Shown piece after piece: positions 3,893 to 53,501 of a stretch of DNA of 64,000 nt. The stretch spans positions 51,493,745-51,557,744 of the forward strand of contig NC_057726.1 of assembly GCF_004010195.1 (NCBI RefSeq), read 5' to 3'. Made by a program: the position numbers and the translations under genes. The stretch's first letter is position 1. The number at the start of each line of letters is the position of its first letter. The DNA comes from Chiloscyllium plagiosum. Lineage: Eukaryota. Under the pieces are notes generated by a model. It searched no databases, was not told the DNA's origin, and saw only the letters and a program-made list of their open reading frames with translations.

Positions 3893-6396
3893 TCAGTTAA
3901 CAATGTTTCAGTAATGAGAGAGCAAGCAGCGGAGCTCAATGGATATAATGATTGTCCAATAACTCTTGGCTTCTTGTTAGAGGGATGTCAGTCACTGTAG
4001 TTGTAAAAGTTGAAGTCCTGTAACAGGCAGAATTTTGCATTATTAAATATCCTTTTAGTAAGCACTTCTGTCCCCAAAGGGATGGTGGATTTCTTCATGC
4101 TCCTTAGAGCTGCATCCCTCACTGTACATTGCCAGAGCACACCCACCCTGAGGATTCTGCAGTACTGGAGCTGGAAGTGACATAAGTTTTGAACTCTGTT
4201 AGATCTTTCTGTGTTTGGATTGTAAACCAAAGACATGACTTAAAAGCTTAACTGGGCTTGCTGAACTCCTGGCACGGTACTCGTCTGAGGTAGCAGACTT
4301 GTGAAGTTAACGTGAGCTAATAGTATTTAACATATTATGCGTTGTTGAAATGGTCTGTTTTGCCTCTGAGTATAGAATTGGATTTTGAATTATCTAAAGT
4401 ACTAATTTGATGATCATATTTAGGCAAGCTGTACATCTAAATACTTTTGTCAAAAATACAGTTTGATTGTTGTCAGATAATGTTGCTGCTTGCCTCAATA
4501 GACTTCTCAGTTCCTCCAATACCTGAATGAGTATAGTATCTTTCATGAATCCATTCAGATTAAATCCTTGTAAACTTCATTTTCATTCAAGATGGGATTG
4601 GATTTAAAAATATGGCTCTTTTGAAATGCAAGATGCCAGAACGCTGCATTGTTGCTGGTATAGGTTTTAACAGGGCCTGTGATCTCATAGCTTGAATTCT
4701 ATTTCAGTAGTTGTTTTTGATGAAGTGGCTTGAATATAGCTTTGTCTTTCAGTGTGACAAAATTTCCCTCATTGCTCTATTCCCCTCTTGTACCATTGTC
4801 TGTGGGCTCAGACTGTTATTCAGTCAAACCAAAATTTGCCAAGTGTTGAGCTTCTTCCCCTGTACCCCTCCACCCCCACCCCACGCATCCCTTGGATGAT
4901 GTGTCCAAGATGGCAAACCCTTGGAGTGTAGTTTGAATATTTTCCTCTTAAGCTTTTTGTTTTCTTCTCTTTGAAATTTAATTATATAGGGGATTGTCCC
5001 ATCCAATCAAATAAGGCTCTAAGTAAGGCCCCACAACAAGCAATCCTTTAATTTGGCCTCTAATGTTTTGTTGGGGTAAACAGAATTAGCACAAACAGCC
5101 AGCCTTTTGGTAATTTTATAACTTAGCACAACTGTGACTGTGCAGTGGAAGCCAGCATACCTTCTAAGATTAGTCCATTCTTTTAAAGTTTCCAGAACTG
5201 CCTTAGTCTCTTCCTTCCATTGCAGCGGTTATACTGATGAAATCTGACTGGCAAGCTTTGTGCAGTATTTGTGGAGATGAAAATCACAAATATTGAAATA
5301 AAAGAGAACTAGTTTAGAAGAAACAGAAATAAGATAGACTTCAGATTTTAATGGTTAAGTTGCTGAGGGATTTTGTTCCCTCTTTACCCTCCCTACCATT
5401 TTGGAGTTGTCCTATCTGATTAGTATAAAGCTTGGAAATGCATTTGGCTTTGCGGTGTCAACAGGTTTTGCAGGCAGTATTACCTTTCTTGATATAGTGT
5501 AAAGAAAACCTAGGCCGAGAGTATTTTAATTCCAAGAATGACTTTAACTTGAGTCTTTTGTGTTGTGATGCACAACAAAATAAACCCTAGGTTCACCACA
5601 GTTTGCAGGTCCTGGAAATAGTTTACAGAACTTAATGTCTGCTGTAGACCACTAATGCCAACAGACTCCAACCAAATATTCTAAACTGGAATGTGGGCAT
5701 ACTTTAGGATGTTTCTGCTTGTCATCTTGACTGATGTTACCTGATCCACTTGATGCTCTGTTGTTTCAAATTTGCGCTGCAGACGGTGTGTGGTCCTGCA
5801 CCCTGCGGCACAGAGGATTGAACTCGTCCTTTTTTTTAACTGAAGGTTACAGATTAGTGGGGTTACAGACTAATGCACTGTAAGAAAAGCATGGACTCTT
5901 ATTACTCAGCAGAACACTAAAAAAGGAAAAGCCAAAGGATCTGTAGCAGTGGCTTAGTCAGCCTTTCTTTTCATCCAGAAGGTGCAGACATTGTATTCTA
6001 TCTTATGACTCCCAGACATTTAAATAACCAATTTTTAAATCTCAAATGCTGGATGTATTAATTGAATGTATTCCAGTGATCAAAACATAAACTGAGGACT
6101 GATATCAGCTACAGAGACTCTAATGGAGTAGTGAGGGGTATATAGCATTCTGAATACTCAAGTCTATATGCACATAATAGTTCCCAACTGTTCATTCTAT
6201 AATATTTTGTAATTATTAAATTGAATACTACCTGCTTGTGCAGTGTTTAACTCCAGTGCACACTGCTCTGGAGTAGTGAGTTGTGCATTGAGCCTGTGAT
6301 TTCTCCAGTGTATGTTGGAGCTCCAAGAGAAATTAATTGTTTCTCTAAAAGGTGCAAGCAAATTCAGAGAAGTAAGTCTTGACACTGTCACTAATT

Positions 6397-6533
6397 TCTG
6401 TGTTCCTGATGAAGGGCTTTTGCCCGAAACGTCGATTTTACTGCTCCTCGGATGCTGCCTGACCTGCTGTGCTTTTCCAGCACCACTCTAATGTAGACTC
6501 TGGTTTCCAGCATCTGCAGTCATTGATTTTACC
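6397..6533 (+). mobile_element. PLE-derived short element, family A, with 15-bp TSD
   Basis: Direct repeat acactgtcactaatt at 6382-6396 and 6534-6548. Body nearly identical (reversed) to 53502-53625. Confidence 0.88.
6403..6436 (+). ncRNA. Candidate minimal hammerhead ribozyme (PLE-type)
   Basis: CTGATGA(6406-6412), extra A, stem GGGC/tttt/GCCC, GAAA, then C-GTC. Palindromic ACGT stem III; predicted cleavage after C6433. Helix I is only about 2 bp. Confidence 0.6.
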
Positions 6534-7126
6534 ACACTGTCACTAATTGGTGTGTATGTCACTATACCCCAAATCGCATTGCAATAATAAGTTAGATATT
6601 GATGTTTATGTGAAGTTCACCAGGCATCTTGATTGCAATAAAAATTATACTTTCAGTTCAACTGAGGAATGTCGTCTTATACAAAGCAGCTTCAGTGATT
6701 CAGGGTGTATAGAACTTAAGGAGCACAATGTGGGGGGTTGGGGAGAGAGGAGATTTTCCAACTCTCCTTGTCCATATTCATGCTTGCATGAACATCACCA
6801 AATAAACCTCTCTAATTTATTACAGGTTTGATCTCGATATGTTTGTCTAGATATGAACACTGATTAAGACCTAATCCTTTAAAGTCCAAGTCTATTAGCT
6901 TGAATTATTGAAGAATTTGATTATTTTTCATGCAGCCAGTGGCTTTGTAATTAACAGAAGCCACCTTTCCCCTTCATTGATATCAATACTCTGGGAAGCC
7001 TTGGAAGTGAGGAAGTGTATATAAATGAGTTTTCTTTCTCATGAAATTAAAATGTACATTTTGACTTCAAAATTTGATGGATATCCAAAGTTTAAGTCAG
7101 TGTTTGCTTTGCAGAATATAGCACAA

Positions 7127-10905: not shown

Positions 10906-11088
10906 CTAAAAAATGTGTCGCTGGAAAAGGGCAGCGGGTCAGGCAGCATCCAAGGAGCAGGAGAATCGACGTTTCGGGCCTAAGCGTCGATTCTCCTGCT
11001 CCTTGGATGCTGTCTGACCTGCTGCACTTTTCCAGCAACACATTTTTCAGCTCTGATCTCCATCTTCAGTCCTCACTTTCTCCTAGTT
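10906..11088. mobile_element. PLE-derived family A fold-back element with 16-bp TSD
   Basis: TSD gatttactacgcaggg at 10890-10905 and 11089-11104. About 65-bp inverted arms (aaaaatgtg...gaatcgacg / cgtcgattc...cacattttt). Confidence 0.9.
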
Positions 11089-15549: not shown

Positions 15550-16162
15550 AAATACAATGTAGAGGAGACTAAATGCAGACTGTGTGACTGGCTTGCAGAC
15601 CGTCCCTGTTTTTCTGTAAGAATGACCCTGATCTAACCACCATTTCATTGCACCACGTTGCTTTCATAGGCCTGTTTCAGTTTTCCAGTCAAGCCTAACA
15701 CAAATAGAAAGAAACCCTTCTGTTTCCGTTTTAGATACTTTATAGGGTTCTGAACTCAGCATGGAGTTCAACAGCTTCCGACCATGAACATTGTCCTCAA
15801 TTTTGATTTCTCTCTTGCCCCACCTCTTTTTAAAAAAAAATACCCATCACCCTCACTGTCTTGTTTGCACAAACATTAATTCTGCTATTAACACCTACCA
15901 TTTATACCTACTCTTCATTTATAGCTCTTCCTGCCTGCCATTAACACTCTCTTTCATCTTTTTGTTCATGGGCACCCTTACCATCTGTTACATTTTCTTG
16001 TCCCCCATTTTCTACTACATTTTCTCAGCCCCTTTGGGTGTCCTGAAGAAGAATTGATTGGGTCTCTGTGTTGTTCTGATTCTTTCAACATAGATGCTGA
16101 GTTTCTCCAGAGTTTTGTTTTATTTCAGATATCAAGCATCTTCAGTACTTTGCTTTCATTTT
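15550..16162 (+). mobile_element. Penelope-like element remnant: decayed GIY-YIG endonuclease C-terminus plus 3' terminal repeat
   Basis: 15553 onward reads YNVEETKCRLCDWLAD, similar to PLE YIGETKRRLxDRFAEH. The stretch 15720-15790 resembles the LIFRLGTL.P.GLN.EFN end motif. It finishes with a family B-like tail (cagcatcttcagtactttgcttt). Confidence 0.65.
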
Positions 16163-16319: not shown

Positions 16320-16480
16320 TGGGAGACAGCTAATGTTTCAATCCAAAGACTCTTCTTTTGAACTAGCTCTTTGGACTCGATGCTAACTCTGTTTCTTTCT
16401 GCACAGATGCTGCCAGACCTGCTAAGCTCTTCCAGCATTTTCTGTTTTTATTTTTGATTTCCAGCATCCACATTTGCTTT
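16320..16480 (+). mobile_element. PLE-derived family B short element with partial inversion
   Basis: cacagatgctgccagacctgct...tttccagcatcc tail, with a short reversed piece at the 5' end. Confidence 0.7.
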
Positions 16481-17347
16481 AATTTGCATTTTGTTTTTAT
16501 TTCCTTTAATTCGTCTGGTTCTTAGACTTCCTTTTAACTGAACCAGATGCCAACAATAACTTTTCCAAGCCAGTCACTATTCCAACAAAACATCCCCAGC
16601 AGTGACTACAGAAAAGTAAGCCCTATCCCCAGCTGAGAGATTTATAGGAAGCCTCCTTTTAAAAAAAGGGACTCGATGTCCACTGTGAACCTTCAATTAC
16701 CTCTTCAAGAGATATGTTCACCAAACCTGCAATGAACAATTTTTTCCACAATCATGCAAGACTTAAATCCTCCAAGCAATTTAACACTACTGTGGACATG
16801 TAGAACCATTGTTTTAGATTAGATTAGATTCCCTACAGTATGGAAACAGACCCTTTGGCCCAACAAGTCCACACCGACTCTAAAAAGAGCAATGTTGAAG
16901 GAGTCTGCAATGCCCATTCTGGTTTTGATGCAGCAGCTGATGTCTCCTGATGTAAAACTTTGAAGATGTTAAGATACTGCCCTGGGTTGCCCTACTTTTC
17001 TCTGATCTACCAGAGTGTGGCTGCTGATGGGTGATAGTAAAATCCACCTTTAAATTGGGCAAGTTCTTAACAGGTGGCTTTTGATACCCCCATGTCAATG
17101 ATGTATGTGAGTGTAAACATTTCCCGCAACATAATCTACCAGTTGTTCACGAGAAATATTGTCTACTTTCAATCTGTTGAGGAGCATTGTGCTGAAGACC
17201 TTGCCATGTACTGACAGTAGCGCTATGCCCCTGCAGTTGTAGTTGCTAAAATTGCATTTTTTTCTCATTGACTCCTAACTATTACTTTGCTTTTGGAGCT
17301 GACTATCATTTTACTCTTTTAATAAACAGATTAAACCAAATTAAAAT

Positions 17348-17453
17348 AAGGTCAGAAGTCACATGTCACCAGGTGAAAGTCCAACAGGTTTATTTGAAAT
17401 CACAAGGTTGTGACTTGTGTGACTTCTGACCCTAACCACTCCAGTCCAACACT
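17348..17453. mobile_element. PLE-derived family C fold-back element split by a CR1 insertion
   Basis: gtcagaagtcaca...tgtgacttctgac arms. The terminal ctccacat resumes after the CR1 at about 17956. Confidence 0.7.
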
Positions 17454-17953
17454 TAGAGTCATAGAGATGTACAGCATGGAAACACCTTCGGTCCAACCCG
17501 TCCATGCCGACCAGATATCCCAACCCAATCTAGTGCCACCTGTCAGCATCCGGCCCAAAACCCTTCCTATTCATATATCCATCCAAATGCCTCTTAAATG
17601 TTGCAATTGTACCAGCCTCCACCACATCCTCTGGCAGCTAATTCCATACGCGTACCACTCTCTGCGTGAAAAAGTTGCCCTTTAGGTCTCTTTTATATCT
17701 TTCCCCTCTCATCCTAAACCTATGTCCTCTAGTTCTGGACTCCCCGACCCCAAGGAAAAGACTTTGCCTATTTATCCTATCCATGCCCCTCATAATTTTG
17801 TAAACCTCTATAAGGTCACCCCTTAGCCTCTGACGCTCCAGGGAAAACCGCCCCAGCCTGTTCAGTCTCTCCCTGTAGCTCAGATTATCCAACCCTGGCA
17901 ACATCCTTGTAAATCTTTTCTGAACCCTTTCAAGTTTCACAACATCTTTCCGA
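17454..17953 (-). mobile_element. CR1/HER1 LINE 3' end (5'-truncated)
   Basis: KDVVKLERVQKRFTRMLPGL...RLRGDLIEVYKIM C-terminus and ctctatgactcta tail. Confidence 0.93.
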
Positions 17954-18180
17954 ACCTCCACATGACAATAAAATAGTAACAGCTCTTTATAGGGGGAAAA
18001 AATTCCTTTCTTTGTCAGCTTGACAATTAGTCTTTATCTTCAGTCATGTGGGTATCCTGTACCGTCCATGTCTTAGTGAACAGATCACAGGCTCATGTTG
18101 CGAAGGTACTCTTGCCATGTTTCATTAATTCTGCTGGTATCTGGTTGATCCCAGGTGCCTTGGTGTTCTTTGTGTTTTTT

Positions 18181-18484
18181 TTAGATTACATTACAGTGTG
18201 GAAACAGGCCCTTCGGCCCAACAAGTCCACACCGACCCGCCGAAGCGAAACCCACCCATACCCCTACATTTACCCCTTACCTAACACTACGGGCAATTTA
18301 ACATGGCCAATTCACCTGACTCTGCACATCTTTTGGACTGTGGGAGGAAACCGGAGCACCCGGAGGAAACCCACGCAGACACGGGGAGAACGTGCAAACT
18401 CCACACAGTCAGTCGCCTGAGGCGGGAATTGAACCCGGGTCTCAGGCGCTGTGAGGCAGCAGTGCTAACCACTGTGCCACCGTG
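18181..18484 (-). mobile_element. HE1-type V-SINE (young)
   Basis: Nearly identical in reverse to 48470-48792; flanking repeat gtgttctt. Confidence 0.93.
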
Positions 18485-18619
18485 TTCTTGTCAGTTCGTT
18501 GGACCTGGATTCGACCAAACAGCAGCAGAGTGATTTGAAAGCTTATGCTTTGAGTTGTCTAAAGACAGACTCTGGCAGTTACTTCAGTGTGAAGTTACCC
18601 CCAAGCATGGGTTTGTACA

Positions 18620-18850
18620 TCAGAAATAAAAACAAATTGCTGGAGAAACTCAGCAGGCCTAGCAACATCTATGGAGAGAAAGACAGAATCAACATTTCGG
18701 GTCCAGTTCTTCAGAACTGCTATGAAGAAGGGTCACTGGGCCAAAGTTCAGACTCTGCTTTGACAGATGCTGCCAGTCCTGCTGAGGTTCTCCAGCTTTT
18801 CTGTTCTTGTTTCATATTTCGAGCACCCACAGTTCTTTTTTTTTGTTTTG
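18620..18850. mobile_element. PLE-derived family B fold-back element
   Basis: Arms gctggagaaactcagcagg / cctgctgaggttctccagc around a degenerate tgaagaagggtcactgg core. Confidence 0.75.
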
Positions 18851-20766
18851 TGTACAACAGCCCCTGCTGAAAATTGTTCCTAGTGTCACTCATATATCGC
18901 TGGTGTTTACTCTTGCCTTGCGCAAAACAGGAATAACTACACTAAATGCTCAAAGGGAGCTGATGGATTTGGTTATCTTTGTTTATCGTGCAAGACACAA
19001 TGTTGGTTGTTTTGATCGTGAGTGCGTTCTATCAGCGTAGACTTGAAAGCTAAGTTTAGGGCCTTGAATAATGGACTTATTTAGTCATCCTGGCAGTGAG
19101 CCAGTCAAATTTATATAAAATAAAACTTGGAAAATGTAACATCAGCTGTACATTTAAACACAAAGACTATCATGACTTTTTCTAGGCTCCCTTTCTACAG
19201 AGTATAAATCACCCAAAATTCTTGTGTGTGTATTACTGGATAGAAAGGTGAAGGCTTGTGACAGACTCAGTATGAGTGTGTGTGTGTGTGTATATATATA
19301 GATATATCCTCACTGCTTTACTGACCAGATTAGGTCATCAATAGCCATAGTTTCCAAACAACCGGCAGAATCTTGTTTGTTGAAGGAGTGGTGGGCGATG
19401 TTTCTAAGAGATTAATGTGCTTTTCCGGCGATTGCCTCTTGAATGCTGAAATTTATTGAGTTTATAATTGCTTGGGAATTTTTGGTATATTGGACAACTG
19501 CTTCCAAATGGCTGAGTTGTGTCTGCTGCAGTCATGTCTCTGAAGCTGCCCTAGTTCAAATAGAATTCTTACCTGTGCAGTTGTTTTCAAGTTAATGTTT
19601 GCCACTTGATTGTAGTGTCGCTGTCTGTTCAGTTGGCAGGACATATTGTGTGCAGTAACCAACCTACATTTATGGTGGAAGGCATTAGTGTTTGAGCTGC
19701 CTGGCCTGTGGATAGCCCATGTTTGCAGCCTTTGACAGTTCTGACAGCCTCATATTTAAGATCTCCGATTATGAGACTGAAGCAGCACTTTTTTATTTTT
19801 GAATGTGTGTCTAGAAGCTACAATTGCTCCCTGATGGTTCCTATGTTGCTGTGCCACAGTTTTGCCCCAGGGATGGTAATGTTGATGGCAAGGCTCTAGA
19901 TGAAATGTTGATTGAGGGGAGGCTCAGCCATGCCCTGTGGTATTTCAGTGTGAATTATTTGAGTATTTTGTGTGAACATTGATTTTCATGGATATTTTTC
20001 CTATCTTAGTCGTAGCGATATACAACTTGGAAACAGATCTTTTTGGTCCAACTTGTCCATGCTGACCAGATATCCTAATCTAATCTAGTCCCATTTGCCA
20101 GTATTTGGCTCATATCCCTCCATACCTTTCCTATTCATGTACCCATGTGGATGCCTTTTAAATGTTGTAATTGTATCATGTCTCCACCATTTCTCTGGCA
20201 GATAGTTCCATACATGCACCACCCTCTGTGTGAAAAAGTTACCCCTTAGGTTCCTTTCCCTTTCCCTTCTCACCTTAAACCTATGCTGTCTAGTTCTGGA
20301 CTCTCCCACCCAAGGGAAAAGACGTTGTCTATTTACCCTATCCATGCCCCCATGATTTTATAAACCTCTGTGAGGTCACCCCTCAGCCTCCGCCGCTCCA
20401 GAAAAATAGCCCCAGCCTATTCAGCCTCTCACTATACTCAAATCCTCCAACCCTGGCAACATTCTTGTAAAGTTTTTCTGAACCCTTGCAAGTTTTATAA
20501 CATCCTTCCTTTAACAGGGAGATCCAGAACTGAATGTGGTATTCTAAAACTGGTCTCACCAATCTTCAGTGCATGATGTCCCAACTCCTATACTCAAAGC
20601 ACTGACCAATAAAGATAAACGTACCAAACGTGTTCTTCACCACCCTGGTTACCGGTGATTCTACTTTGAAGGGACCAAGGTTTCTTTGTTCAGCAACACT
20701 TCCCTGAACCTTACTATTAAGTGTATAAGTTTTGTCATGTTTTGCCTTTCCAAAATGCAGCACCTC

Positions 20767-21273
20767 CTATCAGAAGGATGTTGTGAAACTTGAAAGGGTT
20801 CAGAAAAGATTTACAAGCATGATGCCAGGGTTGCAGGATTTGAGCTATGGGGAGAGGTTGAATAGACTGGCGCTGTTTTCCCTGGAGCGTCAAAGGCTGA
20901 GGGGTGACCTTATAGAGGTTTATGAAATCATGAGGGACATGGATAGGATAAATAGACAAGCTCTTTTCCTTGGGGTGGGAGAGTCCAGAACTAGAGGGCA
21001 TAGGTTTAGGGTAAGAGGGGAAAGATGTAAAAGTGACCTAAGGGGAAATCTTTTCACATAGAGGGTGGTGTGTGTATGGAATGAACTCCCAGAGGAAGTG
21101 GTGGAGGCTGGTTCAATTGCAGTGTTTAAAAGGCTCTGGACGGGTATATGAATAGAAAGGGTATGGAGGGGTATAGGCCAAATGCTGGCAAATGGGACTA
21201 GATTAGGTTAGGATATCTGGTTGGCATGGACAAGTTGGACCAAAGGGCTGTTTCTGTGCTGTACATCTTTATG
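20767..21273 (+). mobile_element. CR1/HER1 LINE 3' end nested in opposite orientation
   Basis: YQKDVVKLERVQKRFT...GDLIEVY. The host sequence resumes at acctcacatt; acctc occurs on both sides. Confidence 0.9.
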
Positions 21274-22616
21274 ACCTCACATTTATGTAAATTAAACTCC
21301 ATCTGCCACTCCTCTGCCCATTGGCCCATCTGATGAAGATCCCATTGTACTCTGAGGTAATTTTCTTCGCTGTCCACTACACCTCCAATTTTGGTGTCAT
21401 CTGAAAACTTACTAACTATACCTCCTATGTTCACATCCAAATCTTTTTATATAAGTGGACCCAGCACTGATCCTTGTGGCACAGCACTGGTCACAGGCCT
21501 CCAGGCCGAGAAACAATCCTGTACCATCACCCTCTGGCTCCTACCTTCAAGTCAATTTTCTATCCAGTTGGCTAGCTCTCCCTGGATTCCATGTGATCTA
21601 ATCTCGCTAATCAGTCTACTATGCAGAACCTTGTCGAACACCTTGCTGAAGTCCATATAGGCAAAGTCTACTGCTCTGCCTTCTTCAATAGTGTTTGTCA
21701 CATCATCAAACAAAAACTCAAATCAAATTAGTGAGATACGATTTCCCACACACACAGCTATGTTGAACGATCACTAATCAGTCCTTGCCTTTCCAAGTTC
21801 ATGTAAATCCTGTCCGTCAGAGTCTCCTCCAGCTACTGATGTCGGGCTACCCGTCTCTAGTTCCCTGGCTTTTCCTTACAGTCTTTCTTAAGTGATGGCA
21901 TCACATTAGCCAATTTCCAGTCTTCTGGGACCCCAACTGTGGCTATTGATGATGTACATATCCCAGCAATCTCTTCCCTAGCTTTCCACAATGTTCTGCA
22001 ATACACCTGATCAGGTCCCAGGGCTTTATTTACCTTTGTGTTTTAAGACATCCAACATCTCTTTTGTAATATAGACACTTGTCAAGATATCACTATTTAT
22101 TTCCCCAAGTTCTCTACTCTTCTTATCCTTCTCCAAGTAAATACTGACTCAAAATACTCATTGATCTCCTGTGGTTTCACATGTAGATGGCCTTGTTGAT
22201 TTTTAATGGGCCCTATTCTCTCCCTAGTTTTTTGCACTGAATATATTTGTGGAATCTCTTTGACAAATACTGTTAAGGAGATTCCAGAGATATCTCATCA
22301 TCTCTTCTTTTGCCCTTCTGATTTTCTTCTTGTGTATGCTCCTTCTGCCCTTGTGCTCCTCTAGGCATTTACTTGATCCCAGCTGTCTATACCTGACATA
22401 TGCCTTCTCCTTTTTCTTGACCAGAGCCTCAATGTCTCTGGTCATCCAGCATCCCTTACACCTAACCAGCCTTGCCTAATGCACGAACATGAATGTATTG
22501 TCTCCGAACTCTCATTATCTTATTTATGAAGGCCTCCCAGTATCCAACTGTCCTGTTAATTGTGAATAGCCTCCCCAATCAACTTTGAAAAGTTCTTGCC
22601 TAATTCTTCAAAATTG

Positions 22617-22750
22617 AATCTGAAAGAACTGTGGATGCTGTATATCAGAAACGAAAACAGAAGTTCCTGGAAAAGCTCGGCAGATCTGGCAGCATCTGTG
22701 AAGAGAAATCAAAGTTAATGTTTCGGGACTAGTGACCCTTCCTCAGAACT
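22617..22750 (-). mobile_element. PLE-derived family B short element with hammerhead-like core
   Basis: The minus strand reads agtt-CTGAGGA-agggtcactagtccc-GAAA-catt-aact (22750-22713), with helix I agtt/aact. Confidence 0.75.
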
Positions 22751-26549: not shown

Positions 26550-27005
26550 AGTTTCAGCCCTTCATGAAGGGCTAGATAGGGTGGATACAGACTGGACCTA
26601 TCCCCATTGCTGTGCAATCTAAAACCAGGGAACACAGAAAAACTCGCAGGACTGAGACAAGGACTTGTTTCACTGAGGGTGGGGAATCTTTGTGCCTGAC
26701 CTGCTGTGGTGTTCCAGCAATAAAGTTTCAACTGTGCAATCTAAAACCAGGGAACACAGAAAAACTCGCAGGACTGAGACAAGGACTTGTTTCACTGAGG
26801 GTGGGGAATCTTTGGAATACTGTACACCAGAGATCTGAGGAGGCTCAGTCCTTAAGTAATTTGAAATCAGAAATTAGTAAATTTAAAACTATCTGTTGAC
26901 TTCAAGGGATATGGGAATGGCATGGAAATATGGCATTGACTGAGATGATCAGTTTGATCTGCAATGGGGGAGCAAGCTTGAGGAGCTGAATGGTCTTCTG
27001 CTCCA
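26550..27005 (+). mobile_element. Old CR1-type LINE 3' end containing an 83-bp duplication around a 39-bp PLE fragment
   Basis: tttcactgagggtggggaatctttggaa and gagctgaatggtcttctgctcc 3' motifs; 26610-26692 is identical to 26732-26814. Confidence 0.75.
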
Positions 27006-29139: not shown

Positions 29140-29785
29140 TGTCAACAAAAGTCACAGTTAGACAGGGTGGTCAAGAAGGTGTTTAGTATACTTTGCTTTC
29201 TTGTTCAGACCTTTGAATATGGGAGTTGGGATGTCACGTTGAGATTATACTGGATGGGGGTGAGGCCTTCTTTGGAGTACTGTGTTCAGCTCTGCTTCTC
29301 AGTTAAAGGAAAGATATTGAACTGGAGAGGGTTCAGAAACACTTTACCAGGGTGTTGCCAAGAATGGAGGGTTTGAGATATGAAAGTGGACGAGAAAGGC
29401 TGGGAATCTTTTCACTGGTGTGTAGGAGGTTGAGGGGTTGACTTTATTGAAGTTTATAAAATCATGAAGGATAAAGGTAAGGTGAATGACAAGGGTCTTT
29501 TCCCTAGAGTGAGGGAGTTCAAAACTGGAGACAAAATTTGGAGGTGAGAGGAGAAAGCTTTAAAAAGGACAGGAGGGGCACTCTTTTTACACAGTGGTTT
29601 GTGGTGGAATTAACTGCCAGAGAAAGTAGATACAATGCTTAAAAGACATTTGGATAAGTTTATGAATAGGAAAAGTTTGGAGGAATATGGGTGAAACGCA
29701 GGCAACTGGGACCCGCTTAATTTGGGAACGTGGTCAGCGTGGACTAGCTGGACTGAAAGGTCTGTTTCTATGCTGTATGACTCTA
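29140..29785 (+). mobile_element. CR1/HER1 LINE 3' portion
   Basis: SQLDRVVKK...LEYCVQ motif and gctgtatgactcta tail. Confidence 0.88.
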
Positions 29786-32439: not shown

Positions 32440-32990
32440 TTTTTAAACTAGGCGGGTTGACTCTGATCCGTCAGGATATTACTCTGAGAAAGGAATCAGC
32501 AAATGGTTGTCACTTATTTTTTGAGTTGATTCAGGCGCAGTGCATGGGCATGTTCTTTCTGTCTGCAAAGATCATGCCCCTGTGTTAATTTATTTATCTT
32601 CTATTAAATGTATGTACACACAGTGTCAGCCTGACTGACCATCCTGAGTTGGTTGTGAGTACAATTCCTTGTACAGTCAAGATTATCCAACAAGTGCTGT
32701 CCTATTGCAGATTCATACATAATCTTAAAACACTGTATTGAGAGTTTTTCAAGCCTGGGTAGGTTGGGTATGGTCAGTGTTGATAAAATGTGGACTCTCT
32801 TGCTTCTCAGATGCTGAGTGACCTGCTGTGCTTCTTCCATTAGCACACTTTATGGACTTTGACTTCTCCAGCATCTGCAGTCCTCACTATCTCCTGGGTA
32901 TGGTCAGTACCTTGCTTGTTGAAGGGAGATTCAGTGGGCATGATCACCCAGTCTTTGAGAAGCATGGCCTACATATGGCATCACACCAGC
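32440..32990 (-). mobile_element. Penelope-like element GIY-YIG remnant (second PLE lineage) with nested family A insertion
   Basis: The minus-strand peptide SAIGQHLLDNLDCTRNCTHNQLRMVSQA resembles the SAI..HL motif of PLE endonucleases. Confidence 0.55.
32779..32894 (+). mobile_element. PLE-derived family A short element with 14-bp TSD
   Basis: tgggtatggtcagt at 32765-32778 and 32895-32908; tail ccagcatctgcagtcctcactatctcc. Confidence 0.82.
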
Positions 32991-33585: not shown

Positions 33586-33921
33586 GCATGGTGGCTCAGT
33601 GGTGGCGGCACGATCGCTCAGTGGTTAGCACTGCTGCCTCACAGCACCAGGAACCCAGGTTCAATTCCAGCCTTGGGCGACTGTCTGTGGAGTCTGCACA
33701 TTCTCCCCATGTCTGCATGGGTTTCCTCTGGGTGCTCCGATTTCCTCCCACAGTCCAAAGATGTGCAGGTCAGGTGAATTGCCCATGCTAAATTGCCCGT
33801 AGTGTTAGGTGCATTAGTCAGAGGGAAATGGGTCTGGGTGGGTTCCTCTTCGGAGGGTCAGTGTTAACTGGTTGGGCCGAAGGGCCTGTTTCCACACTGT
33901 ATGAAATCTAATCTAATCTAA
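33586..33921 (+). mobile_element. HE1-type V-SINE with duplicated 5' head
   Basis: gcatggtggctcagtgg directly precedes tggcggcacgatcgctcagtggttagc; B box ggttcaattcc; (TCTAA)n tail. Confidence 0.92.
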
Positions 33922-35475
33922 ATTAAGGCCAATCTCCCAAATGTTTTGCATGTTAGCTATAGGAGAGGCTACAGCAGATGATCAAAGAGATGGTGCTTAC
34001 AATACAAGAACCTCTAAGCAATGCATAACATCAATCACAACACAGAATCCTGAACCTTATTGCAAAACTAACACCGAAGCCCATAATGGTTACACTCAAA
34101 CAACAGCACTCTTGGTCAACCCTCTCATTAAATACTGTCACAGATATTTAGGACTTAATTGGTTTGTGACTGATCAAAGTGGTATATTTTTAGGAGGGAG
34201 TTGAATGACTTTGGGCCTGAGAGAAGATGGGTGAAGTGATAGATGCATTTGTGTCACTTAACAACTATCTAAGCATTTGGGGCAATGTACAAAAGAGTTA
34301 TCAGTTTGAGCCTCATGTCAGAGAATTTAGGCTCCAAAATGAGAAGAAATCTCGCAAAGGAATGAGAGATAACAAGCATGTTTCGAAAAGGTTAATCAGG
34401 AGCACTGTATTAAGTTGAACTTTGGATAGAGGGCAAAGGGAAACTTGGGCTAATGTTGAAATGTATCTTCGCACACAGTGAGAGTGATGCTGGAATGATG
34501 ACCTGTCTTTTTGTCCAATTTTAACCCTATTGACTTCGTAGAGGTTACTAAATAGCAATCAGCTGAAAGTGACTTGACCAACCTTTTCTATTTAATTTTC
34601 TTTTTAATGCAGAGGCAGTGAAGTCAAAAGTAGCAGTTGGAAAACCTATGATTTATGTCCATGTATTTTTAAAAACAATACAGATGTTAGACTATAAAAT
34701 GGTAGAAAAACTTTTGAACTCCATTGATTCTGCTTCTGACAGTCCCAGCATTCTTTACAATGTTCCCACATATGTGACCCTTGTGACCTCCTCCCAAGAT
34801 GTTTCCTCTGATGGAAATAACGCTGTGAAAGCTGTTTGTTAACCCCAAGGGCTGCATTGCAATTCCTGCAGTAATGAAAATGGAACCAGCTCTCTGTATA
34901 GTGGGTCAGATTCTTTCGTAGTAAACTCTCATTGTCCGAAAGAGTGCAGGAAGATTAGTGCAGGAATGGGGGGAAAAAAAAGCCAACAAATTCTGCATTA
35001 GTTCATTGAGATTGTGAGCTTTGCACGGACAACATACATGATACATTGGTTTACATGGAGCATATTGTTGGTGATGGCAAGATGTTTCCCTTAATTCCTG
35101 CCTTGAGCGTTTTTTTTTTGCCTGTTTTTCACAAACATTTTCTCTGTCTATTAAGAAGTGCTTTTGTTGGACATCACAAAGGGAGCCCAGTGCTTGAGGC
35201 GAACTCTATTCGGCAGGCTAATAGCATAGCAATCTCACTTTCCACAGCTTTATAAGCATCAAAATAAATGCCATGTGTAGACACATTGTAACATTGACAG
35301 TAGGGCATGACCTCTGCATAGAAGCTGGCATTGGTATTCCAGAACTTGTCTGCACCAGTCACTGACTGTCACATGTTTGGAACGCAATTGGTTTGTGACT
35401 GATGCAAGTGACAGATTTGAGGGGGTCGGTGGATTCGGGCCCCAGGAGGAGATAGAGAAAGTGATAGATACATTT

Positions 35476-35477
35476 GT

Positions 35478-35515
<38 letters not shown>

Positions 35516-35662: not shown

Positions 35663-35873
35663 GAGAAAGTGAGGTCTGCAGATGCTGGAGATCAAAGTTG
35701 AAACTTTATTGCTGGAACAGCACAGCAGGTCAGGCAGCATCCAGGGAACAGGAGATACGACGTTTCGGGCACAGGCCCTTCTTCAGGAAACTTCTATGTG
35801 ACAATAGCATACAATCTCCTGTTCCCTGGATGCTGCCTGACCTGCTGTGCTGTTCCAGCAATAAAGTTTCAAC
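35663..35873 (-). mobile_element. PLE-derived family A fold-back element with 15-bp TSD and hammerhead core on the minus strand
   Basis: TSD ctcattccctcagtg at 35648-35662 and 35874-35888. About 59-bp perfect arms. The minus strand reads CTGAAGA-agggc-ctgt-gccc-GAAAC-GTC at about 35787-35758. Confidence 0.9.
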
Positions 35874-38534: not shown

Positions 38535-38625
38535 CAAAAGTGAGGACTGCAGATTAGAGTAGAGAGTGTGGTGCTGGAAAAGCACAGCAGGTCAGGCAGC
38601 ATCCAAGGAGCAGAAAAATAACAGT
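38535..38625 (-). mobile_element. PLE-derived family A fragment
   Basis: aaagtgaggactgcaga...gctggaaaagcacagcaggtcaggcagcatccaaggagcag. Confidence 0.8.
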
Positions 38626-38834: not shown

Positions 38835-41089
38835 TGTTAGGGTGAAAGGAAAGGCTGGCAGGTGAAGGGAATGCTGGATGACTAGAGAAATTGAGGTTTT
38901 GGTCAAGAAAGAAGAAAGCATATGTCAGGTATGAACAGCAGAGATTGAGTGAATCCTTAGATTATAAAGGCAATAAGAGTATAGTCGAGGGGAATCAGGA
39001 GGGCAAAAAGTGGACATGAGATAGCTTTGGCAAATGGGAGAATCCAAAGAGATTTTAGAAATGTATCAAGGGCAAAAGGGTAACTAGGGAGAGAATAGGA
39101 CTCGAAGATCAGCACGGCAGCCTATATGTGGAACTGCAGGAAATGGGGGAGATACTAAACAAGTATTTTGCATCAGTGGAGAAGGACATGGAGGATACAG
39201 AATGTTGGGAAATAAATGGTAACATCTTGAAAAATGTCCTTATTACAGAGGAGGTGGTGCCGGATGTCTTAAAAAGCATAAAGGTGGATAAATCCCCAAA
39301 TCCTGATCAGATGTACCCTCAAACTCTGTGGGAAGCTGGGAAAGTGATGGCTGTGGGCCTTTTGCTGAGATATTTGTATCATTGATAGTCATAGGTGAGG
39401 TGCCAGAAGACTAGAGAATGGCTAACATGGTGACACTATTTAAGAAAGGTAGTAAGGAAGCCAGGGAAATGTAGACCGGTGAGCCTGACGTCAGTAGTGG
39501 GCACATTGTTGGAGGGAATCCTGAGGGACAGGATTTACATGTGTTTGGATAGGCAAGGACTGACTAGGATAGTCAACATGGCTTTGTGCGTGGGAAATCA
39601 TGTCTCACAAACTTGATTGAGTTTTTTTGAAAAAGTAGCAAAGAGGATTGATGAGAGCAGAATGGCAGACAAGATCGATGTGGATTTCAGTAAGGCATTT
39701 GACAAGGTTTGTTATGGTGGACTAGTTAGCAAGGTTAGATCTCATGGAATACAGGGAGAACTAGCCATTTGGATACAGAACCGGCTCAAAAGTAGAAGAC
39801 AGAGGGTGTTGGTAGAGGGTTGCTTTTCAGACTGGAGGTCTGTGACCAGTGGTGTGCCACAAAAATCAGTGCTGGTCCACTACTGAACGTAGGAAGTATC
39901 ATTAGTAAGTTTGCAGATGACACTAAAATTGGAGGTGTAGTGGACAGTGAAGAAGGTTATCTCCGAGTACAACGGGATCTTGATCAGATGGACCTATGGG
40001 CCGAAGAGTGACAGATGTAGTTTCATTTAGATAAATGCAAGGTGCTGCATTTTGGAAAGGCAAATCAGGGCAGGACTTATACACTTAATGGGAAGGTCCT
40101 GAGGAGTGTTGCTGAACAAAGAGACCTTGGAGTGCAAGTTCATAGTTCCTTGAAAGTGGAGTCGCGGGTAGATAGGATAGTGAAGAAGGCATCTGATATG
40201 CTTTCCTTTGTTGGTCAGAGTATTGAGTACAGGAGTTGGGAGGTCACGTTGCAGCTGTACACGATAATGGTTAGGCCACCTTTGGAATATTGTGTGCAAT
40301 TCTGGTCTCCTTCCCATCAGAAGGAAGTTGTGAAGCTGGATAGGGTTTTTGATTAGATTAGATTCCCTACAGTGCAGAAACAGGCCCTTCAGCCCAACAA
40401 GTCCACACTGACTCACCCAGACCCATTCCCCTACTCACGCACCTATCACTATGGGCAATTTAGCATGGCCAATTCACCTGACCTGCACATCTTTGGACTG
40501 TGGGAGGAAACTGGAGCACCCGGAGGAAACCCACGCAGACTCTGGGAGAATGTGCAAACTCCACACAGACAGTCGCCCAGGGCTGGAATTGAACCCGGGT
40601 CCCTGGTGATGCGAAGCAGCAGTACTAACCACTGAACCACTGTGCCGCCCTGTTCAGAAAAGGTTTACAAGGATGTTGCCATGTTGGAGGGTTTGAGCTA
40701 TAGTGAGAGGCTGAGGGGTGACCTTATAGAGGTTTATAAAATCATGAGTGGCATGGATAGGATAAATAGACAAAGTCTTTTCCCAGGATTGGGAAAGTCC
40801 AGGACTAGAGGTTTAGACTGAGGGGAAAGATTTAAAAGGGAACTATGGGCAACTTCTCCATGTAAAGGGTGGTGCAAATGGAATGAGCTGCCAGATGAAG
40901 TGGTGGAGGCTGGTACAATTGCAACATTTAAAAGGCATCTGGATGGGTATATAAATAGGAAAGGTTTGGAGGGATATGGGCCAAGTGCTGGCAAATGGGA
41001 CTAGTTGAGGTTAGAATATCTGGTCAGCATGGACAAGTTGGACCAAAGGGTCTGTTTCTGTGCTGTAAACCTCCCTGACTCTATAACTC
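38835..41089 (+). mobile_element. CR1/HER1 LINE, decayed ORF2 to 3' end
   Basis: DFSKAFDKV, VTSGVPQ, SKFADDTKIGG and LEYCVQFWSP motifs with stops and frameshifts; HE1 SINE nested at 40349-40650. Confidence 0.93.
40349..40650 (-). mobile_element. HE1-type V-SINE nested in CR1
   Basis: Full reverse head gggcggcacagtggttcagtggttag and (TCTAA)n tail. Confidence 0.92.
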
Positions 41090-41442
41090 CCATAATGCAC
41101 ATTCAGATGTTGATGGGAAAACTAGAAAAGAAGTTGAGTAGTCTTTGCTCACAAGGTCTGTTGGGTTGGTTGTTGCTGATTAAAAGGCTTTTACTTGCTG
41201 ATTAAAAGGCTTTTAAAAGACTGGTTTGCTAGAGTCACAGGGTGTTCCGACCTGAAGCCTCCATTCCCTGCTGCTCTGATGTTCCTTCACCTGCCGTGCT
41301 TTCTTCAGTTCCACACTTTATCGACCCCAAGAGGCATAGGGTGGATGGTTCACTTGTAAATGTTCACTGATCAATTAACAGTCACAACTTATAGAGTCAT
41401 TAAAAGAAAGAAACTGGTTTTCTAAAGATTTAATATGGATTT

Positions 41443-41622
41443 CAACGAAGTCAGAAGTCTCATAACACCAGGTTATAGTCCAACAGGTTTCTTTGAATTC
41501 CACCTGATGAAAGAGCAGTGCTCTGAAAGCTTGTGATTTCAAATAAACCTGTTGGACTATAACCTGGTGTAGTGTGACTTCTGACTTTGTCCACCCCAGT
41601 CCAGCTCTGGCACCTCCACATC
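41443..41622 (+). mobile_element. PLE-derived family C fold-back element with 8-bp TSD
   Basis: atggattt at 41435-41442 and 41623-41630; arms aagtcagaagtc...caacaggttt / aaacctgttg...gacttctgactt. Confidence 0.85.
41501..41535 (+). ncRNA. Candidate minimal hammerhead ribozyme (PLE-type)
   Basis: cac-CTGATGA-a-agagc-agt-gctct-GAAA-gctt-gtg: helix I cac/gtg, helix II agagc/gctct, palindromic AGCT stem III, CUU triplet. Confidence 0.55.
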
Positions 41623-46075: not shown

Positions 46076-46543
46076 AAGTCTGTTGTGGTGTAGACTGTAA
46101 TGCAGTCAACTACAGTCCTTAACAATGACCATACCTGTTCTGATAAGGGTTCCAAATTGTCTTTTGACTGTACAGATGCTGCCTGACTTGTTGAGTATTT
46201 TCCACTCTTTCCTGTGATTTCACCCTGCATTGCATAAAGTCCACTGAAGATGTTACCTAGTAAGGTAATGAAACATCTGGAAATGAACCTTTCAGCTCAG
46301 CGAGCAAACCTACATCCAAAACCTCAACCTGAGCTACAAATCTTCTCAAAATTCAGTGTTCTATTACTGGGCTATCGAATGAAAATTGAAAGTGTTCTTG
46401 TTTCTCTTGGAGTAGTTTTAACCGTATGGTTTTGGTGCTAGGTGTGTTAAGCTGCTTCCTGCCAATTATTGAGGCAAAATTGTGCTCTCGGAGTTTGATC
46501 ATTTTCATCCCTTTAATTGATGTTGTGAATTCTTATTTTGCAG

Positions 46544-48469: not shown

Positions 48470-48792
48470 GGGCGGCACGGTGGCACAGTGGTTAGCACTG
48501 CTGCCTCACGGCGCCAGAGACCCGGGTTCAATTCCCGCCTCAGGCGACTGACTGTGTGGAGTTTGCACGTTCTCCCCGTGTCTGTGTGGGTTTCCTCCGG
48601 GTGTTCCGGTTTCCTCCCACAGTCCAAAGATGTGCAGGGTCAGGTGAATTGGTCATGCTAAATTGCCCGTAGTGTTAGGTAAGAGGTAAATATAGGGGTA
48701 TGGGTGGGTTTCGCTTCGGCAGGTCGGTGTGGACTTGTTGGGCCGAAGGGCCTGTTTCCACACTGTAATGTAATGTAATCTAATCTAATCTA
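48470..48792 (+). mobile_element. HE1-type V-SINE, full length and young
   Basis: A box tggcacagtgg (48481), B box ggttcaattcc (48525), V-domain, LINE-like 3' tail and (TCTAA)n end. Confidence 0.95.
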
Positions 48793-49097
48793 AACCTTTT
48801 GCACCTTTTGTCGTTTTAAAAGATTTCATAATTACAGAGACAAAAGTACAAAGCACAACTGTTGACAAGTTCCTGTCTTCTTTTCACTTCCCAGTTTCAC
48901 CTTTTCTCCCGAGATGACTTCCCATCATTGGGATAAGTGTTGATGCACTATCCTTGTAGATTTCCCCATCAGTCACTAATCATTTGATATGACATATAAC
49001 TTTACGGATTGATTCAAGTGCTGGGTCATTTTTTAATTGCATTTTCTAGTCTTATTATATAAGGGATACAGTTAATTAGAAGGCAGAAGAGCTTTAT

Positions 49098-50008
49098 AGA
49101 GTCATAGAGATGTACAGCATCGGTCCAACCAGATATCCCAATCCAATCTAGTCCCACCTGCCAGCACCCGGCCCATATCCCTCCAAACCCTTTCTATTCC
49201 TATACCCATCCAAATGCCTTTTAAATATTGCAATTGTATCAGCCTCCACCACTTCCTCTGGCACCTCATTCCATATACGTACCACCCTCTGTGTGAAACA
49301 GTTGACCCTTGGGTCTCTTTTATATCTTTCCCCGCTCACCCTAAACCTATGCCCTCTGGTTCTGGACTCCCCGACCCCAGGGAAAAGACCTTGTCTATTT
49401 ATCCTATCCATGTCCCTCATAATTTTGTAAACCTCTATAAGGTCCCCCTCAGCCTCTGACGCTCCAGGGAAAACAGCCCCAGCCTGTTCAGCATCTCCCT
49501 TTAGCTCAAATCCTCCAACCCTGGCAACATCCTTGTAAATCTTTTCTGAACCCTTTCAAGTTTTACAACATCTTTCTGATAGGAGGGAGACCAGAATTCA
49601 CACAATATTCCAACAGTGTCCTAACCAATGTCCTGTACAGCCGCAATATCACCTCCCAACTCTGACCAATAAAGGAAAGCATACCAAAGGCCGCCTTCAC
49701 TATCCTATCTACCTGCGACTCCACTTTCAAGGACCTATGAACCTGCATTCCAAGGTCCCTTTGTTCAGCAACACTACCTAGGACCTTACCATTAAGTGTA
49801 TAAGTCCTGCTGAGATTTGCTTTCCAAAAATGCAGCACCTCCCATTTATCTGAATTAAACCTCATCTGCTGCGTCTCAGCTCATTGGCCCATCTGGTCCA
49901 GATCCTGTTGTGATCTGAGGTAATCTTCTTTGCTGTCTACTACACCTCCAATTTTGGTGTCATCTGCAAACTTCCTAACTGTACCTCTTATGCTCGCATC
50001 CAAATCAT
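49098..50008 (-). mobile_element. CR1/HER1 LINE 3' ~0.9 kb
   Basis: Runs from FADDTKIGG to the 3' tail on the minus strand. Confidence 0.93.
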
Positions 50009-50516: not shown

Positions 50517-51747
50517 GTGAGTAATGTTGCTTAAGTAACACCTGAAGTTGTGCAAAGGTGTTGGTTTTAATATGCAGTAATATTAGACCCTGTAATGTTC
50601 AATTAAAGATACAGTTGAGTCTTTATGTATGTCCCAGTACAAAAATTCTGACAGTTGCATTGTATTGTCTGATTTCAATAATAGTTTGTAAGATGCAAGG
50701 GCAAAAGCAGGCCATGCTGCCCATCGGTTCCACTGCACCATTCAATGAGATCAATTACACTTTCCTGCCTTTTCCCCATAACCCATGGTTCCCTTATTGA
50801 CTTAAAAATATGCCTATTCTCATCCATGAATATATTTAATGACCAAACCGTCATAGCCCCTGTGCTTCATCACCACCTGAGAAAGAAATTCTTCCTCTTG
50901 GAAGGGCAACATGTGTGGGCGCAGGCTTGGATGGCTGAAGGGCCTGTTCCTGTGTTGTATTCTTCTGTTGTTTGTTCCTCTCTTAAGAGGGCAACTCCTT
51001 TCTCTGAGATGATGCCCTCTGGTCCTAGATTCTCCCACAAGGAGAAATAGCCTTTCTGCATTGACCCCCTATCAATCCAATTTAGAATCTGATGTTTCAA
51101 TAAAGTCTCCTCCTCTCATTTATTCTCCTAAATTCCAATGAGTACAAGCTCAAGCTGCTCAGCCTCTCCTCAAAGAAAATCCCTCCACATCCAGGATCAA
51201 TGTCGCGAACTTTATCCGGACTGCCTCCAATTTTCTATCCATGCTAATATATCTAACCCCATAGTCTGTTATAGTATTAAGTAGCCAAGTGTGAACCATT
51301 ATTGAATGCCTTTTGGAAATTCAATATATCTTTCCTTAGATCAGGGATCAAAACTGTTCAGTATTTAAGTGTGGTCTAACTAGTGCCGTGTGTAGATTTA
51401 GCAAGTGTGTCTCGTTTTATACTCCATTGCATTTGAAATAAAGGGCAACATTTCATTTGCCTTCACTAATACCCACTGGACTTGGCCACCTTTTCTATGT
51501 GGTTCACTCACGATTTCTACCAAGTCTCTCTTTGCTTCAGCTTGCTGCAATATTTTCTCATTTAAAAAGTATTCTGTTCTTCTCTTCCTGCCAAATGCAT
51601 AACCTCACATTTTTATATTCCATCTGTCAAATCTTTGGCTTAATCTATCTGTATCCCTAAGTAGACGACTTATGTCAGCTTCATTATTTGCCTTCCCATT
51701 TACTTTTGTGTTGTCTGTAAATATGGTGACAGGACATTAATTTCTAT

Positions 51748-52035
51748 GGTGACAGGGTGGCTCCGTGGTTAGCACCGCTGTCTCACAGCACCAGGTACCC
51801 AGGTTCGATTCTACCTTTGGGCAACTGTCTGTGTTGCATATTCTTCCTGTGTCTGTGTGAACTTCCTCTGGGTGCTCCAGTTTCCTCCCACAATCCAAAG
51901 ATGTGCAGGCTAGGTAGATTAGCCATGCTAAATGTAGGAGTACAGGGATAGGGTCGGGGGGTAGATCTGGGTGAGGTGCTCTTTGGAAGGTCAGTGATGG
52001 GCCTAATAGCCTGTTGCCACACTTCTGGGTTTCTA
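51748..52035 (+). mobile_element. HE1-type V-SINE (diverged) nested in LINE
   Basis: ggtggctccgtggttagcacc head, ggttcgattc B box and V-domain. Confidence 0.88.
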
Positions 52036-53007
52036 TCAAAATCCAAATGATTAATATACTTTGTAAATAATTGTAGCTCCCAAAGATCCCCGTGATACTC
52101 CACTAGTTACAGTTTCCATTTTGAAAATGTCTCCTTTTATTCAATGTTCTATCTTCTATTAGTTAGCCAGTCCTCTATCCATACTAATAGATTACCTGTA
52201 ACACATGGATTGTTATCTTAAGTAGCCTTATGTGTAGTACGTTATTGAATACCTTTTGGAGATCCAAATGTTATATCTTCTGGTTCCCCTGTATGTATCC
52301 TGCTTGTTACCACCTCAGGGAGCTGTAGTAAAGTTTATCAGGCATGATTCACCTTTCGTGAAGCCATGCTGACTCTCCAGGTTATATTATGTGTTTATAG
52401 ATATTCTGCTATTACATCCTTTATTTTAGTCTAATATTTCCCCAATGATGTACATTAAGCTTACTGGCCTATCATTACCTGCGTTTTTAAAATTTTCCTC
52501 CCTTTTTAAATGTTGTTACTTTAGTAATTTTCCTATCCACTGGGACTTTTCCAGAATCTAAGGATTTTTAGAGGATTATAACCAGTGCATCCACTATCTT
52601 TGTAACTAATTCCTTAATATCTCCAGAAGCAGTCAGTCAGGTCCAGGAACATATTGCCTTTAGTCCCTTCTCTAATGATACCTATTGTGTTTATGCTTCC
52701 TCCCCTCCCCCTTGATTATCTCGTATTTTGTCTTACTATTTATATCCTCGATCATGAAGACTGATGCAAAACATTTTTTCAACTCATTTGCCATTCCCTG
52801 GCTTTCCCTTATTTTCCCAGCCTCATTCTGTAAGGGCTTTATCTTGCCTCTCTTTTCTTTTTATATCTTTAAATAAACTTTTATTGTCTGTTTTTTGTAT
52901 TATATGCTAGTTTGCCCTCATAATTTATTTTTTTCCTTCCTCGTTATTTTCTGGTCTTTTTTTGTTGTTGGTTTTGAAACTTCTGCTTTTGAAGTTCTGC
53001 TTCTCCA

Positions 53008-53298
53008 GACTGCTTCTGGAGATATTAAGGAATTAGTTACAAAGATAGTGGATGCACTGGTTATAATCCTCTAAAAATCCTTAGATTCTGGAAAAGTCCC
53101 AGTGGATAGGAAAATTACTAAAGTAACAACATTTAAAAAGGGAGGAAAATTTTAAAAACGCAGGTAATGATAGGCCAGTAAGCTTAATGTACATCATTGG
53201 GGAAATATTAGACTAAAATAAAGGATGTAATAGCAGAATATCTATAAACACATAATATAACCTGGAGAGTCAGCATGGCTTCACGAAAGGTGAATCAT
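53008..53298 (-). repeat. 291-bp inverted duplicate of 52344-52634
   Basis: Reverse-complement match; no mismatch found by eye. Confidence 0.93.
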
Positions 53299-53501
53299 CC
53301 TCTGATTTACCACTAAGCTTTGCCAAATTTTCTTTCAATTTGATATTTTCCTTAACTTCCCTGATTAACATTAGGTTTTTCCCCTTCTTAGAATCCTTTT
53401 TCCTCACTGTGATAGATCTTTGTTGTGAGTCATGAGCTATTTTTTAAAATGTCAACTAATATTCATCAACCATTTTTTTCTGCTAAACTTCCAGTACATT
53501 C

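Follow-up and report, generated by a model that had tools for sequence, protein, structure and literature searches.

The 64,000 nucleotides of the Chiloscyllium plagiosum genome analysed here (hereafter the window; contig NC_057726.1, positions 51,493,745 to 51,557,744) carry short repeats which are very probably 3'-terminal pieces of Penelope-like elements (PLEs). These pieces would belong to at least three unrelated lineages (A/B, C and D), inserted by a reverse transcriptase (RT)/GIY-YIG protein encoded elsewhere and now decaying. As part of the same reading, each piece would represent a pseudo-LTR end made of a minimal hammerhead, a body of about 60 nt and a tail of about 35 nt. Self-comparison and profile searches of the 64-kb window yielded 21 related loci (eight of family A, five of family B, two old A/B-like, five of family C and one of family D), in agreement with the roughly 20 copies estimated in the initial annotation; the profiles were built from these same copies, which therefore match by construction. 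Together, the 21 loci total 2,907 bp, i.e., 4.5% of the window. PLE hammerheads were described in 2014, and the repeats add new families to this known class rather than forming a new system.

The family A element at 6397–6533 (+ strand) consists of a single arm with its tail. Its ends are exact, as it lies between two identical 15-mers. The following features were assigned to it:

6406–6433, + strand: minimal type I hammerhead (core 6406–6412, extra A 6413, GAAA 6426–6429)
6414–6417 paired with 6422–6425, + strand: stem II of this hammerhead, 4 bp
6429–6432, + strand: palindrome, followed by C17 at 6433; helix I is only 2 bp
6382–6396, + strand: left copy of the target-site duplication (TSD, 15 bp); right copy at 6534–6548
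6451–6457 with 6508–6514, + strand: predicted body-to-tail stem, 7 bp
6499–6533, + strand: tail of about 35 nt, positioned by comparison with the short ends that other A arms show

The core was found as initially described, with the cut predicted after C6433, which is C17. A strict descriptor of the minimal hammerhead (core, stem II of at least 4 bp, palindrome and NUH) detected three sites in the window (6406+, 35786– and 41504+) and none in each of 60 dinucleotide shuffles, and on this ground the 6406 motif is judged from its sequence to be a genuine minimal hammerhead. This descriptor was passed by only 3 of the 21 loci. A relaxed scan (score of at least 4.5) returned seven sites against a mean of 0.075 in 40 shuffles, namely the three strict ones plus 46244+, 22746–, 1555+ and 1070+. 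The best score was that of 46244+, which belongs to family D and was absent from the initial list. The other loci and their parts were as follows:

10906–11088, both strands: family A, two inverted arms head to head, of which only the + arm has a tail; 16-bp TSD; hammerhead truncated within stem II
26693–26731, + strand: family A, fragment without a tail, flanked by the two copies of an 83-bp direct duplication (26610–26692 and 26732–26814)
32779–32894, + strand: family A, single arm with tail; hammerhead gone; 14-bp TSD
35663–35873, – strand: family A, intact core at 35786 with a helix I of 1 bp; tail on the – arm
35814–35873: second arm of the 35663 locus, inverted and tail-less; 15-bp TSD at the locus
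38537–38620, – strand: family A, fragment with internal deletion; TSD not found
53502–53625, – strand: family A, cut short within stem II; microhomology at the junction with a short inverted arm; exact 14-bp TSD
53810–53905, – strand: empty site, inverted paralogue of the 53500 target; target sequence once, element absent
55181–55338, both strands: family A, inverted arms; 16-bp TSD; the – arm is tail-less, with a core at 55272 whose first stem II pair is broken
22615–22750, – strand: family B, core at 22746 with a helix I of 4 bp; decay has affected the palindrome and one pair of stem II
18612–18850, both strands: family B, inverted arms, of which only the + arm has a tail; one damaged core on each strand
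16375–16494, + strand: family B, old copy
16042–16160, + strand: family B, old copy; first half of the core present
2100–2226, – strand: family B, old copy; palindrome CG retained
41443–41622, + strand: family C, core at 41504 intact; second arm at 41445–41495 inverted and without a tail; 8-bp TSD
1485–1673, + strand: family C, core at 1555 with G12 mutated, preceded by the longest 5' extension (70 nt); 8-bp TSD
938–1187, both strands: family C, inverted arms; one damaged core on each strand (1070 + and 1010 –); 10-bp TSD with one mismatch
54045–54172, – strand: family C, core at 54158 with C3 mutated; 9-bp body-to-tail stem; 8-bp TSD
17348–17452, both strands: family C, inverted arms; core absent; a LINE fragment from 17454 interrupts the tail
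46240–46352, + strand: family D, single copy, ends approximate as the TSD is absent; core at 46244, stem II of 7 bp, helix I of 4 bp, palindrome decayed; frame of more than 35 codons starting from an ATG at core position 9 (46250); AC-rich loop in a 7-bp stem
46140–46225, + strand: old A/B-like fragment adjoining D (profile search, E 6.5e-5)
41254–41321: second old A/B-like fragment (profile search, E 0.0015)

Three families with different bodies had been proposed, and among A, B and C this applies only to C. Indeed, an end-to-end alignment of A with B (70% over 120 nt, E 7e-13) indicates that they are homologous and form one lineage. The CUGANGA and GAAA boxes around stem II, followed by NUH, were intact at 6406, 35786, 41504, 46244 and 22746. 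The first stem II pair (G10.1-C11.1) was G-C at 6406, 35786, 22746 and in most C arms; elsewhere it was A-U at 41504, G-U at 46244 and broken at 55272. The A-U pair at 41504 was considered as a compensatory change and rejected, its C-to-T half being a CpG transition that is also found at 1070 without a change of the partner. Helix I measured 2 bp at 6406, 1 bp at 35786, 3 bp in C and 4 bp in B and D, for 2–5 bp in the published list. The palindrome (15.2-16.2) was present in A and C and absent from D and from the B copy at 22746 (–), for which it had been claimed: this copy reads CA after GAAA, which is non-palindromic, and has a T-T mismatch in stem II. Since the B copies show CG, CA and TG, i.e., CpG transitions in both directions, we infer that the palindrome was lost through CpG decay in B and D. 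Family A carries four different 4-nt loops on a nearly constant stem II, and the stems II of A and B differ by a paired insertion, which suggests that the ribozyme was under selection in the master elements. Stem II had been said to keep its pairing between families; in a covariation test on 11 A/B copies, five pairs had changed on both sides and 64 of 500 shuffles scored equally high, so that significance was not reached. The predicted hammerhead fold was not the minimum-energy fold in any of the four motifs folded.

The initial annotation had read the repeats as PLE derivatives, and this reading is supported, independently of the ribozyme motif, by head-to-head inverted 5' arms, a 30–35-nt tail on one arm, 3' ends 90–100 nt past the cut, and TSDs together with an empty site. 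Inverted arms were found at 8 of the 21 loci (10906, 35663, 53502 and 55181 in A; 18612 in B; 938, 17348 and 41443 in C), and in all eight exactly one arm had a tail, i.e., the last 30–35 nt (35 nt in A, 33–35 nt in C and about 30 nt in B). Full A arms ended at +97 from C17 (three mapped arms plus the reference) and full C arms at +90/91 (likewise three plus the reference). Short ends in A fell near +62 (three of four inverted arms plus the lone 26690 fragment), the fourth inverted arm beginning at a microhomology at +47; in C, all three inverted arms ended near +56 to +58. For the 10900 and 938 loci, the inverted-arm ends were read from the alignment, local mapping having stopped early. The joint chance of such clustering under uniform random ends was 2e-4, for a window of end positions picked after seeing the data.

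The description of the units as TSD-bounded proved clear for A and C and failed for the five B loci and D. Exact TSDs of 14–16 bp flanked six of the eight A loci, the other two having an 83-bp duplication and none, respectively. In C, exact 8-bp TSDs were found at three of the four tested loci and a 10-bp TSD with one mismatch at the fourth. No TSD of at least 9 bp was detected at any of the five B loci or at D. The test covered 18 loci, with a background of 1.3% for exact duplications of at least 8 bp and 0 of 150 for at least 14 bp. Insertion with target duplication is shown directly by an inverted duplication (53437–53680 and 53810–53905), one copy of which holds the family A insertion at 53500; in the other, the empty site, the target occurs once and the element is missing. 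As a separate observation, the 39-nt A fragment within 26610–26814 lies between two exact 83-bp copies, far beyond the usual TSD length.

These features are in line with published descriptions of PLEs. Tails of 30–40 bp, often at one end only, and an inverted truncated copy at the 5' end have been reported (PMC8557442; PMC3846280), with tails of 34–37 bp in Drosophila (PMC2377424). According to these sources, EN+ PLEs (Penelope/Poseidon, Neptune) share with the present repeats 5' truncation, a head-to-head inverted copy, a one-end tail, a TSD, and palindromes or microhomology at junctions (PMC8557442; PMC3846280; PMC2377424). The A TSDs of 14–16 bp are longer than the 8–10 bp given in the rotifer paper (PMC3846280). 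Unlike in described EN+ PLEs, the window held no partial tandem and no PLE ORF: head-to-tail partial tandems (direct pseudo-LTRs) were absent from all 21 loci. Such tandems are published for active copies, and copies without terminal repeats also occur (PMC2377424).

That the repeats are ordinary SINE, LINE or MITE fragments resembling hammerheads by chance appears very improbable. The 20 Rfam matches at E≤10 include no hammerhead family, a result that is weakly informative for a motif devoid of helix III; the inverted loci resemble hairpin elements, and whole-element folding z-scores are weak (–0.08 to –2.69). However, the motif occupies the same place in three unrelated bodies and was never recovered in strict form from shuffled sequence, the inverted arms vary in length and are absent at 13 of the 21 loci, and the TSDs are long. 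Moreover, the 3' ends have neither poly-A nor a simple repeat, unlike the 330-bp SINE of the window. Our motifs fit the published metazoan PLE consensus (Cervera and De la Pena, 2014, PMC4209133). According to that study, such minimal hammerheads occur in fish, coelacanth, frog and reptiles, in dispersed truncated copies, and they share with the present ones the core, an extra nucleotide after position 9, G10.1-C11.1, a palindrome replacing helix III and a short helix I. Several families per genome and mostly solitary truncated copies are likewise common to both (PMC4209133). In its list, and as a lead by eye only, the Acropora Neptune motif looks similar to A and the fish Xena/Poseidon motifs to D.

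The 3'-terminal PLE reading can be compared with PAc, a Poseidon element of Anolis carolinensis (Frangieh et al., 2024, PMC11167929), whose tail lies between two RT start sites. By that account, the main RT start is located 111–118 nt into an ORF beginning at hammerhead stem II and the cut at +26, which by subtraction places the start 85–92 nt past the cut, close to the +90 and +97 arm ends observed here. A hammerhead upstream of two start sites bounding a tail is common to both, as compared by description. Family D is additionally similar to PAc in its ATG-in-core layout (cut 28 nt past the ATG versus 26) and its AC-rich stem-loop, whereas the A/B loops are pyrimidine-rich. PAc has been linked to its ORF and assayed, while the repeats described here are known from sequence alone. 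In vitro, PAc is described as having no strand difference in start site, in contrast to the single tail in eight of eight two-arm loci. As for the template, 5 of 11 mapped A arms started upstream of the cut site and none at +1, as expected if templates were mostly uncleaved RNA; templates ending at the cleavage site are excluded by this mapping. Cleavage of PAc is reported to require protein and to be dispensable for insertion, the uncleaved RNA serving as template (PMC11167929), with which the read-through arms agree.

In the mechanism that we propose, the PLE protein would be supplied in trans and would make a staggered cut, the TSDs observed being 14–16 bp in A and about 8 bp in C. One DNA end would prime reverse transcription at the distal start, as suggested by Anolis PAc, resulting in the tailed arm. 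In about one-third of insertions the other DNA end would prime about 35 nt further upstream, leading to the tail-less inverted arm. In A, copying would halt no more than about 40 nt from the ribozyme, and in C it would reach as far as about 100 nt upstream of the cut site; the template would usually be left uncleaved, as the read-through indicates. In the masters, the ribozyme would have been kept functional, most likely cutting weakly, with the help of protein or as a dimer. The region from +1 to +60 is copied in both arms, which simple twin priming from a single RNA would not explain; we infer a need for two RNAs, a tandem RNA or sequential copying.

The genomic copies themselves look dead, and the hammerhead does not appear to be maintained in them, as judged from CpG decay in the core, the lack of overall preferential core conservation, the absence of tandem cores and the read-through of the cut site. 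In C arms, a transition at the CpG of the C11.1-G12 step was present in four of five. Preferential conservation of core nucleotides across copies was confirmed for family A only: core differences amounted to 0/43 against 46/398 in the body in A (p=0.007), 4/55 against 47/381 in C (p=0.2), 23/66 against 89/521 in B and 27/164 against 182/1300 over all families, gaps being scored in cores only, which penalises cores, and body differences including subfamily differences, which favours them. The A counts and the three intact cores are nonetheless what would be expected if some copies were active, selected ribozymes cutting host transcripts, alone or as palindrome dimers, and the excess of T over A suggests that the + strand, which bears 6406 and 41504, may be transcribed. 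We regard such activity as improbable, given the absence of preferential core conservation in C, B or overall. Dimeric cleavage, which the initial annotation implied, appears unlikely for these copies from their arrangement: none of the 21 loci has tandem same-strand cores, loci with two cores have them on opposite strands, and in the only nearby same-strand pair (1070/1555) both cores are mutated. The palindrome duplex is moreover predicted at only –3 to –4 kcal/mol, and published monomers are described as uncut and dimers as poorly cut (PMC4209133), PAc requiring its protein (PMC11167929).

Small non-coding retroelements with type I hammerheads are also known as animal non-LTR retrozymes, whose canonical hammerheads lie in tandem repeats giving circular RNAs (PMC7229834). 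Spread of the present repeats through such circular RNAs is highly unlikely in our view: they are short, non-coding and hosted by a vertebrate-like genome, as retrozymes would be, but their helix I is 1–4 bp, their units are not in tandem and their ends lie away from the cut site, unlike what is described for retrozymes (PMC7229834; see also the review PMC6155905).

Within the preferred PLE reading, the nature of the masters was considered. Family D most likely derives from an autonomous Poseidon-type element; its open frame of more than 35 codons is not significant by length alone. For A/B and C, truncated copies of autonomous masters and short non-autonomous masters are about equally credible. 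The more specific proposal that A/B and C are SINE-like non-autonomous PLE families, with short master RNAs holding only the cis module and mobilised in trans, narrows the preferred reading and falls slightly short of an even chance. No locus among the 21 exceeds 250 bp or extends into coding sequence, no C frame across the core is open, and the A bodies measure 97, 99 and 100 nt, not in codon steps; pLTRs are reported to be able to act in trans (PMC3846280) and non-autonomous PLEs are known in Chlamydomonas (PMC8557442). On the other hand, the 5' ends are ragged, without a fixed start, the homology between C loci extends at least 35 nt upstream of the core (70 nt are present in one copy), the frame at 35786 is open to the 3' end, and heavy truncation is described as normal for PLEs (PMC4209133; PMC8557442). 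Truncated copies are not expected to hold the RT and GIY-YIG ORF, and the search covered window ORFs and protein searches. None of the 233 window stop-to-stop ORFs of at least 62 aa matched GIY-YIG or a PLE RT in Pfam. Sub-threshold matches to RVT_1 at 1–192 and to an endonuclease fragment at 59306 are read as LINE remains. The protein search with the D frame gave no candidate, its two matches in a representative protein library being long repetitive proteins rejected as artefacts, and that with the A frame gave one candidate, not significant. Atlas scores for the D frame were at most 0.82, and an RVT_1 cluster at 0.75 was of a kind that often arises by chance.

A further common element is a predicted stem joining body and tail, which was perfect over 7–9 bp in 8 of 14 bodies, kept at 6 bp in two further C copies and lost in four. 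Counted from the cut site, its 5' arm begins at +18 in A and C, +21 in B and +17 in D. In A and C, its 3' arm begins 25–26 nt short of the distal end, some 9–10 nt past the short end. When the rule set on A was applied to the other families, three of four C copies passed at 6 bp or more (shuffles 6–11% on the 5' condition and 1–3% on both) and D passed at 7 bp or more (shuffles 0.4% on the 5' condition), for a rule that is post hoc, C copies that are non-independent and a D 3' end set by the analyst. Almost no covariation was seen in this stem, which recalls the "AC-rich stem loop" of PAc. We put forward, as a tentative and rather doubtful model, that the host contains very-high-copy SINE-like non-autonomous PLE families and that unrelated lineages share this stem as a cis "ruler". 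The stem's 5' arm 17–21 nt past the cut and its 3' arm 25–26 nt before the distal end would then place the RT start sites on either side of the 3' arm, and the one-tail rule would mean that a dimeric PLE protein primes the two DNA ends asymmetrically, using overlapping parts of the template. If true, genome data and a 130-nt RNA could be used to test the unresolved step of PLE integration.

The representative motif list of PMC4209133 names no cartilaginous fish, and Penelope repeats have been reported in the whale shark genome (PMC8455134). A search of mainly open-access papers found no literature on shark PLE hammerheads, although the repeats may already be named in Repbase/Dfam, and a 19-nt body string occurred in none of the open-access papers searched. 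Bacterial and archaeal genome contigs gave 0 matches to a body pattern and 0 to the family A hammerhead pattern. Per-genome counts of 4,000 motifs in coelacanth and 9,000 in Xenopus are given in PMC4209133; the density found here (three strict motifs in 64 kb) would far exceed them if it held genome-wide, which one window cannot show. The addition of three lineages, and probably of a new host group, to the known class is a modest gain. Besides, the short, clean, TSD-bounded copies record both reverse-transcription start sites per insertion. If the stem geometry and the one-tail rule hold genome-wide, they would offer a handle on PLE priming and integration and a minimal template for a PAc-type assay.

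Other repeats were noted in the window:

2408–2704, 18175–18485, 33603–33924, 40350–40650, 48470–48792, 51747–52023 and 57525–57826: SINE-like copies
17454–17953, 20008–22616, 29149–29785, 38836–41083, 49097–50008, 59721–60736 and 61439–62468: LINE fragments, which we take to be CR1-like

The SINE-like family, of about 300–330 bp plus fragments, has an A/B-box-like 5' end and a 5-nt repeat tail, and presumably resembles the elasmobranch HE1 SINE. ARAGORN returned 0 genes. The LINE from 17454 is younger than the family C copy ending at 17452, as it interrupts the tail of that copy. No exons were identified by Pfam in the window, and most 2-kb bins have more T than A on the + strand (20,211 versus 17,957 over the whole window), a skew like that of an intron whose gene lies on this strand. 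An intron close to the ORF start is frequent in PLEs, and stretches resembling a branch point, a pyrimidine tract and an AG were seen by eye in A bodies at 6455–6480 and 11070–11087. A diverged direct repeat of about 120 bp is present in two copies (34134–34254 and 35365–35479). Finally, a 298-bp inverted repeat (52337–52634 and 53008–53306; 297 positions identical) consists of a decayed LINE RT fragment, presumably CR1-like, and represents either a recent fold-back duplication or an assembly artefact.
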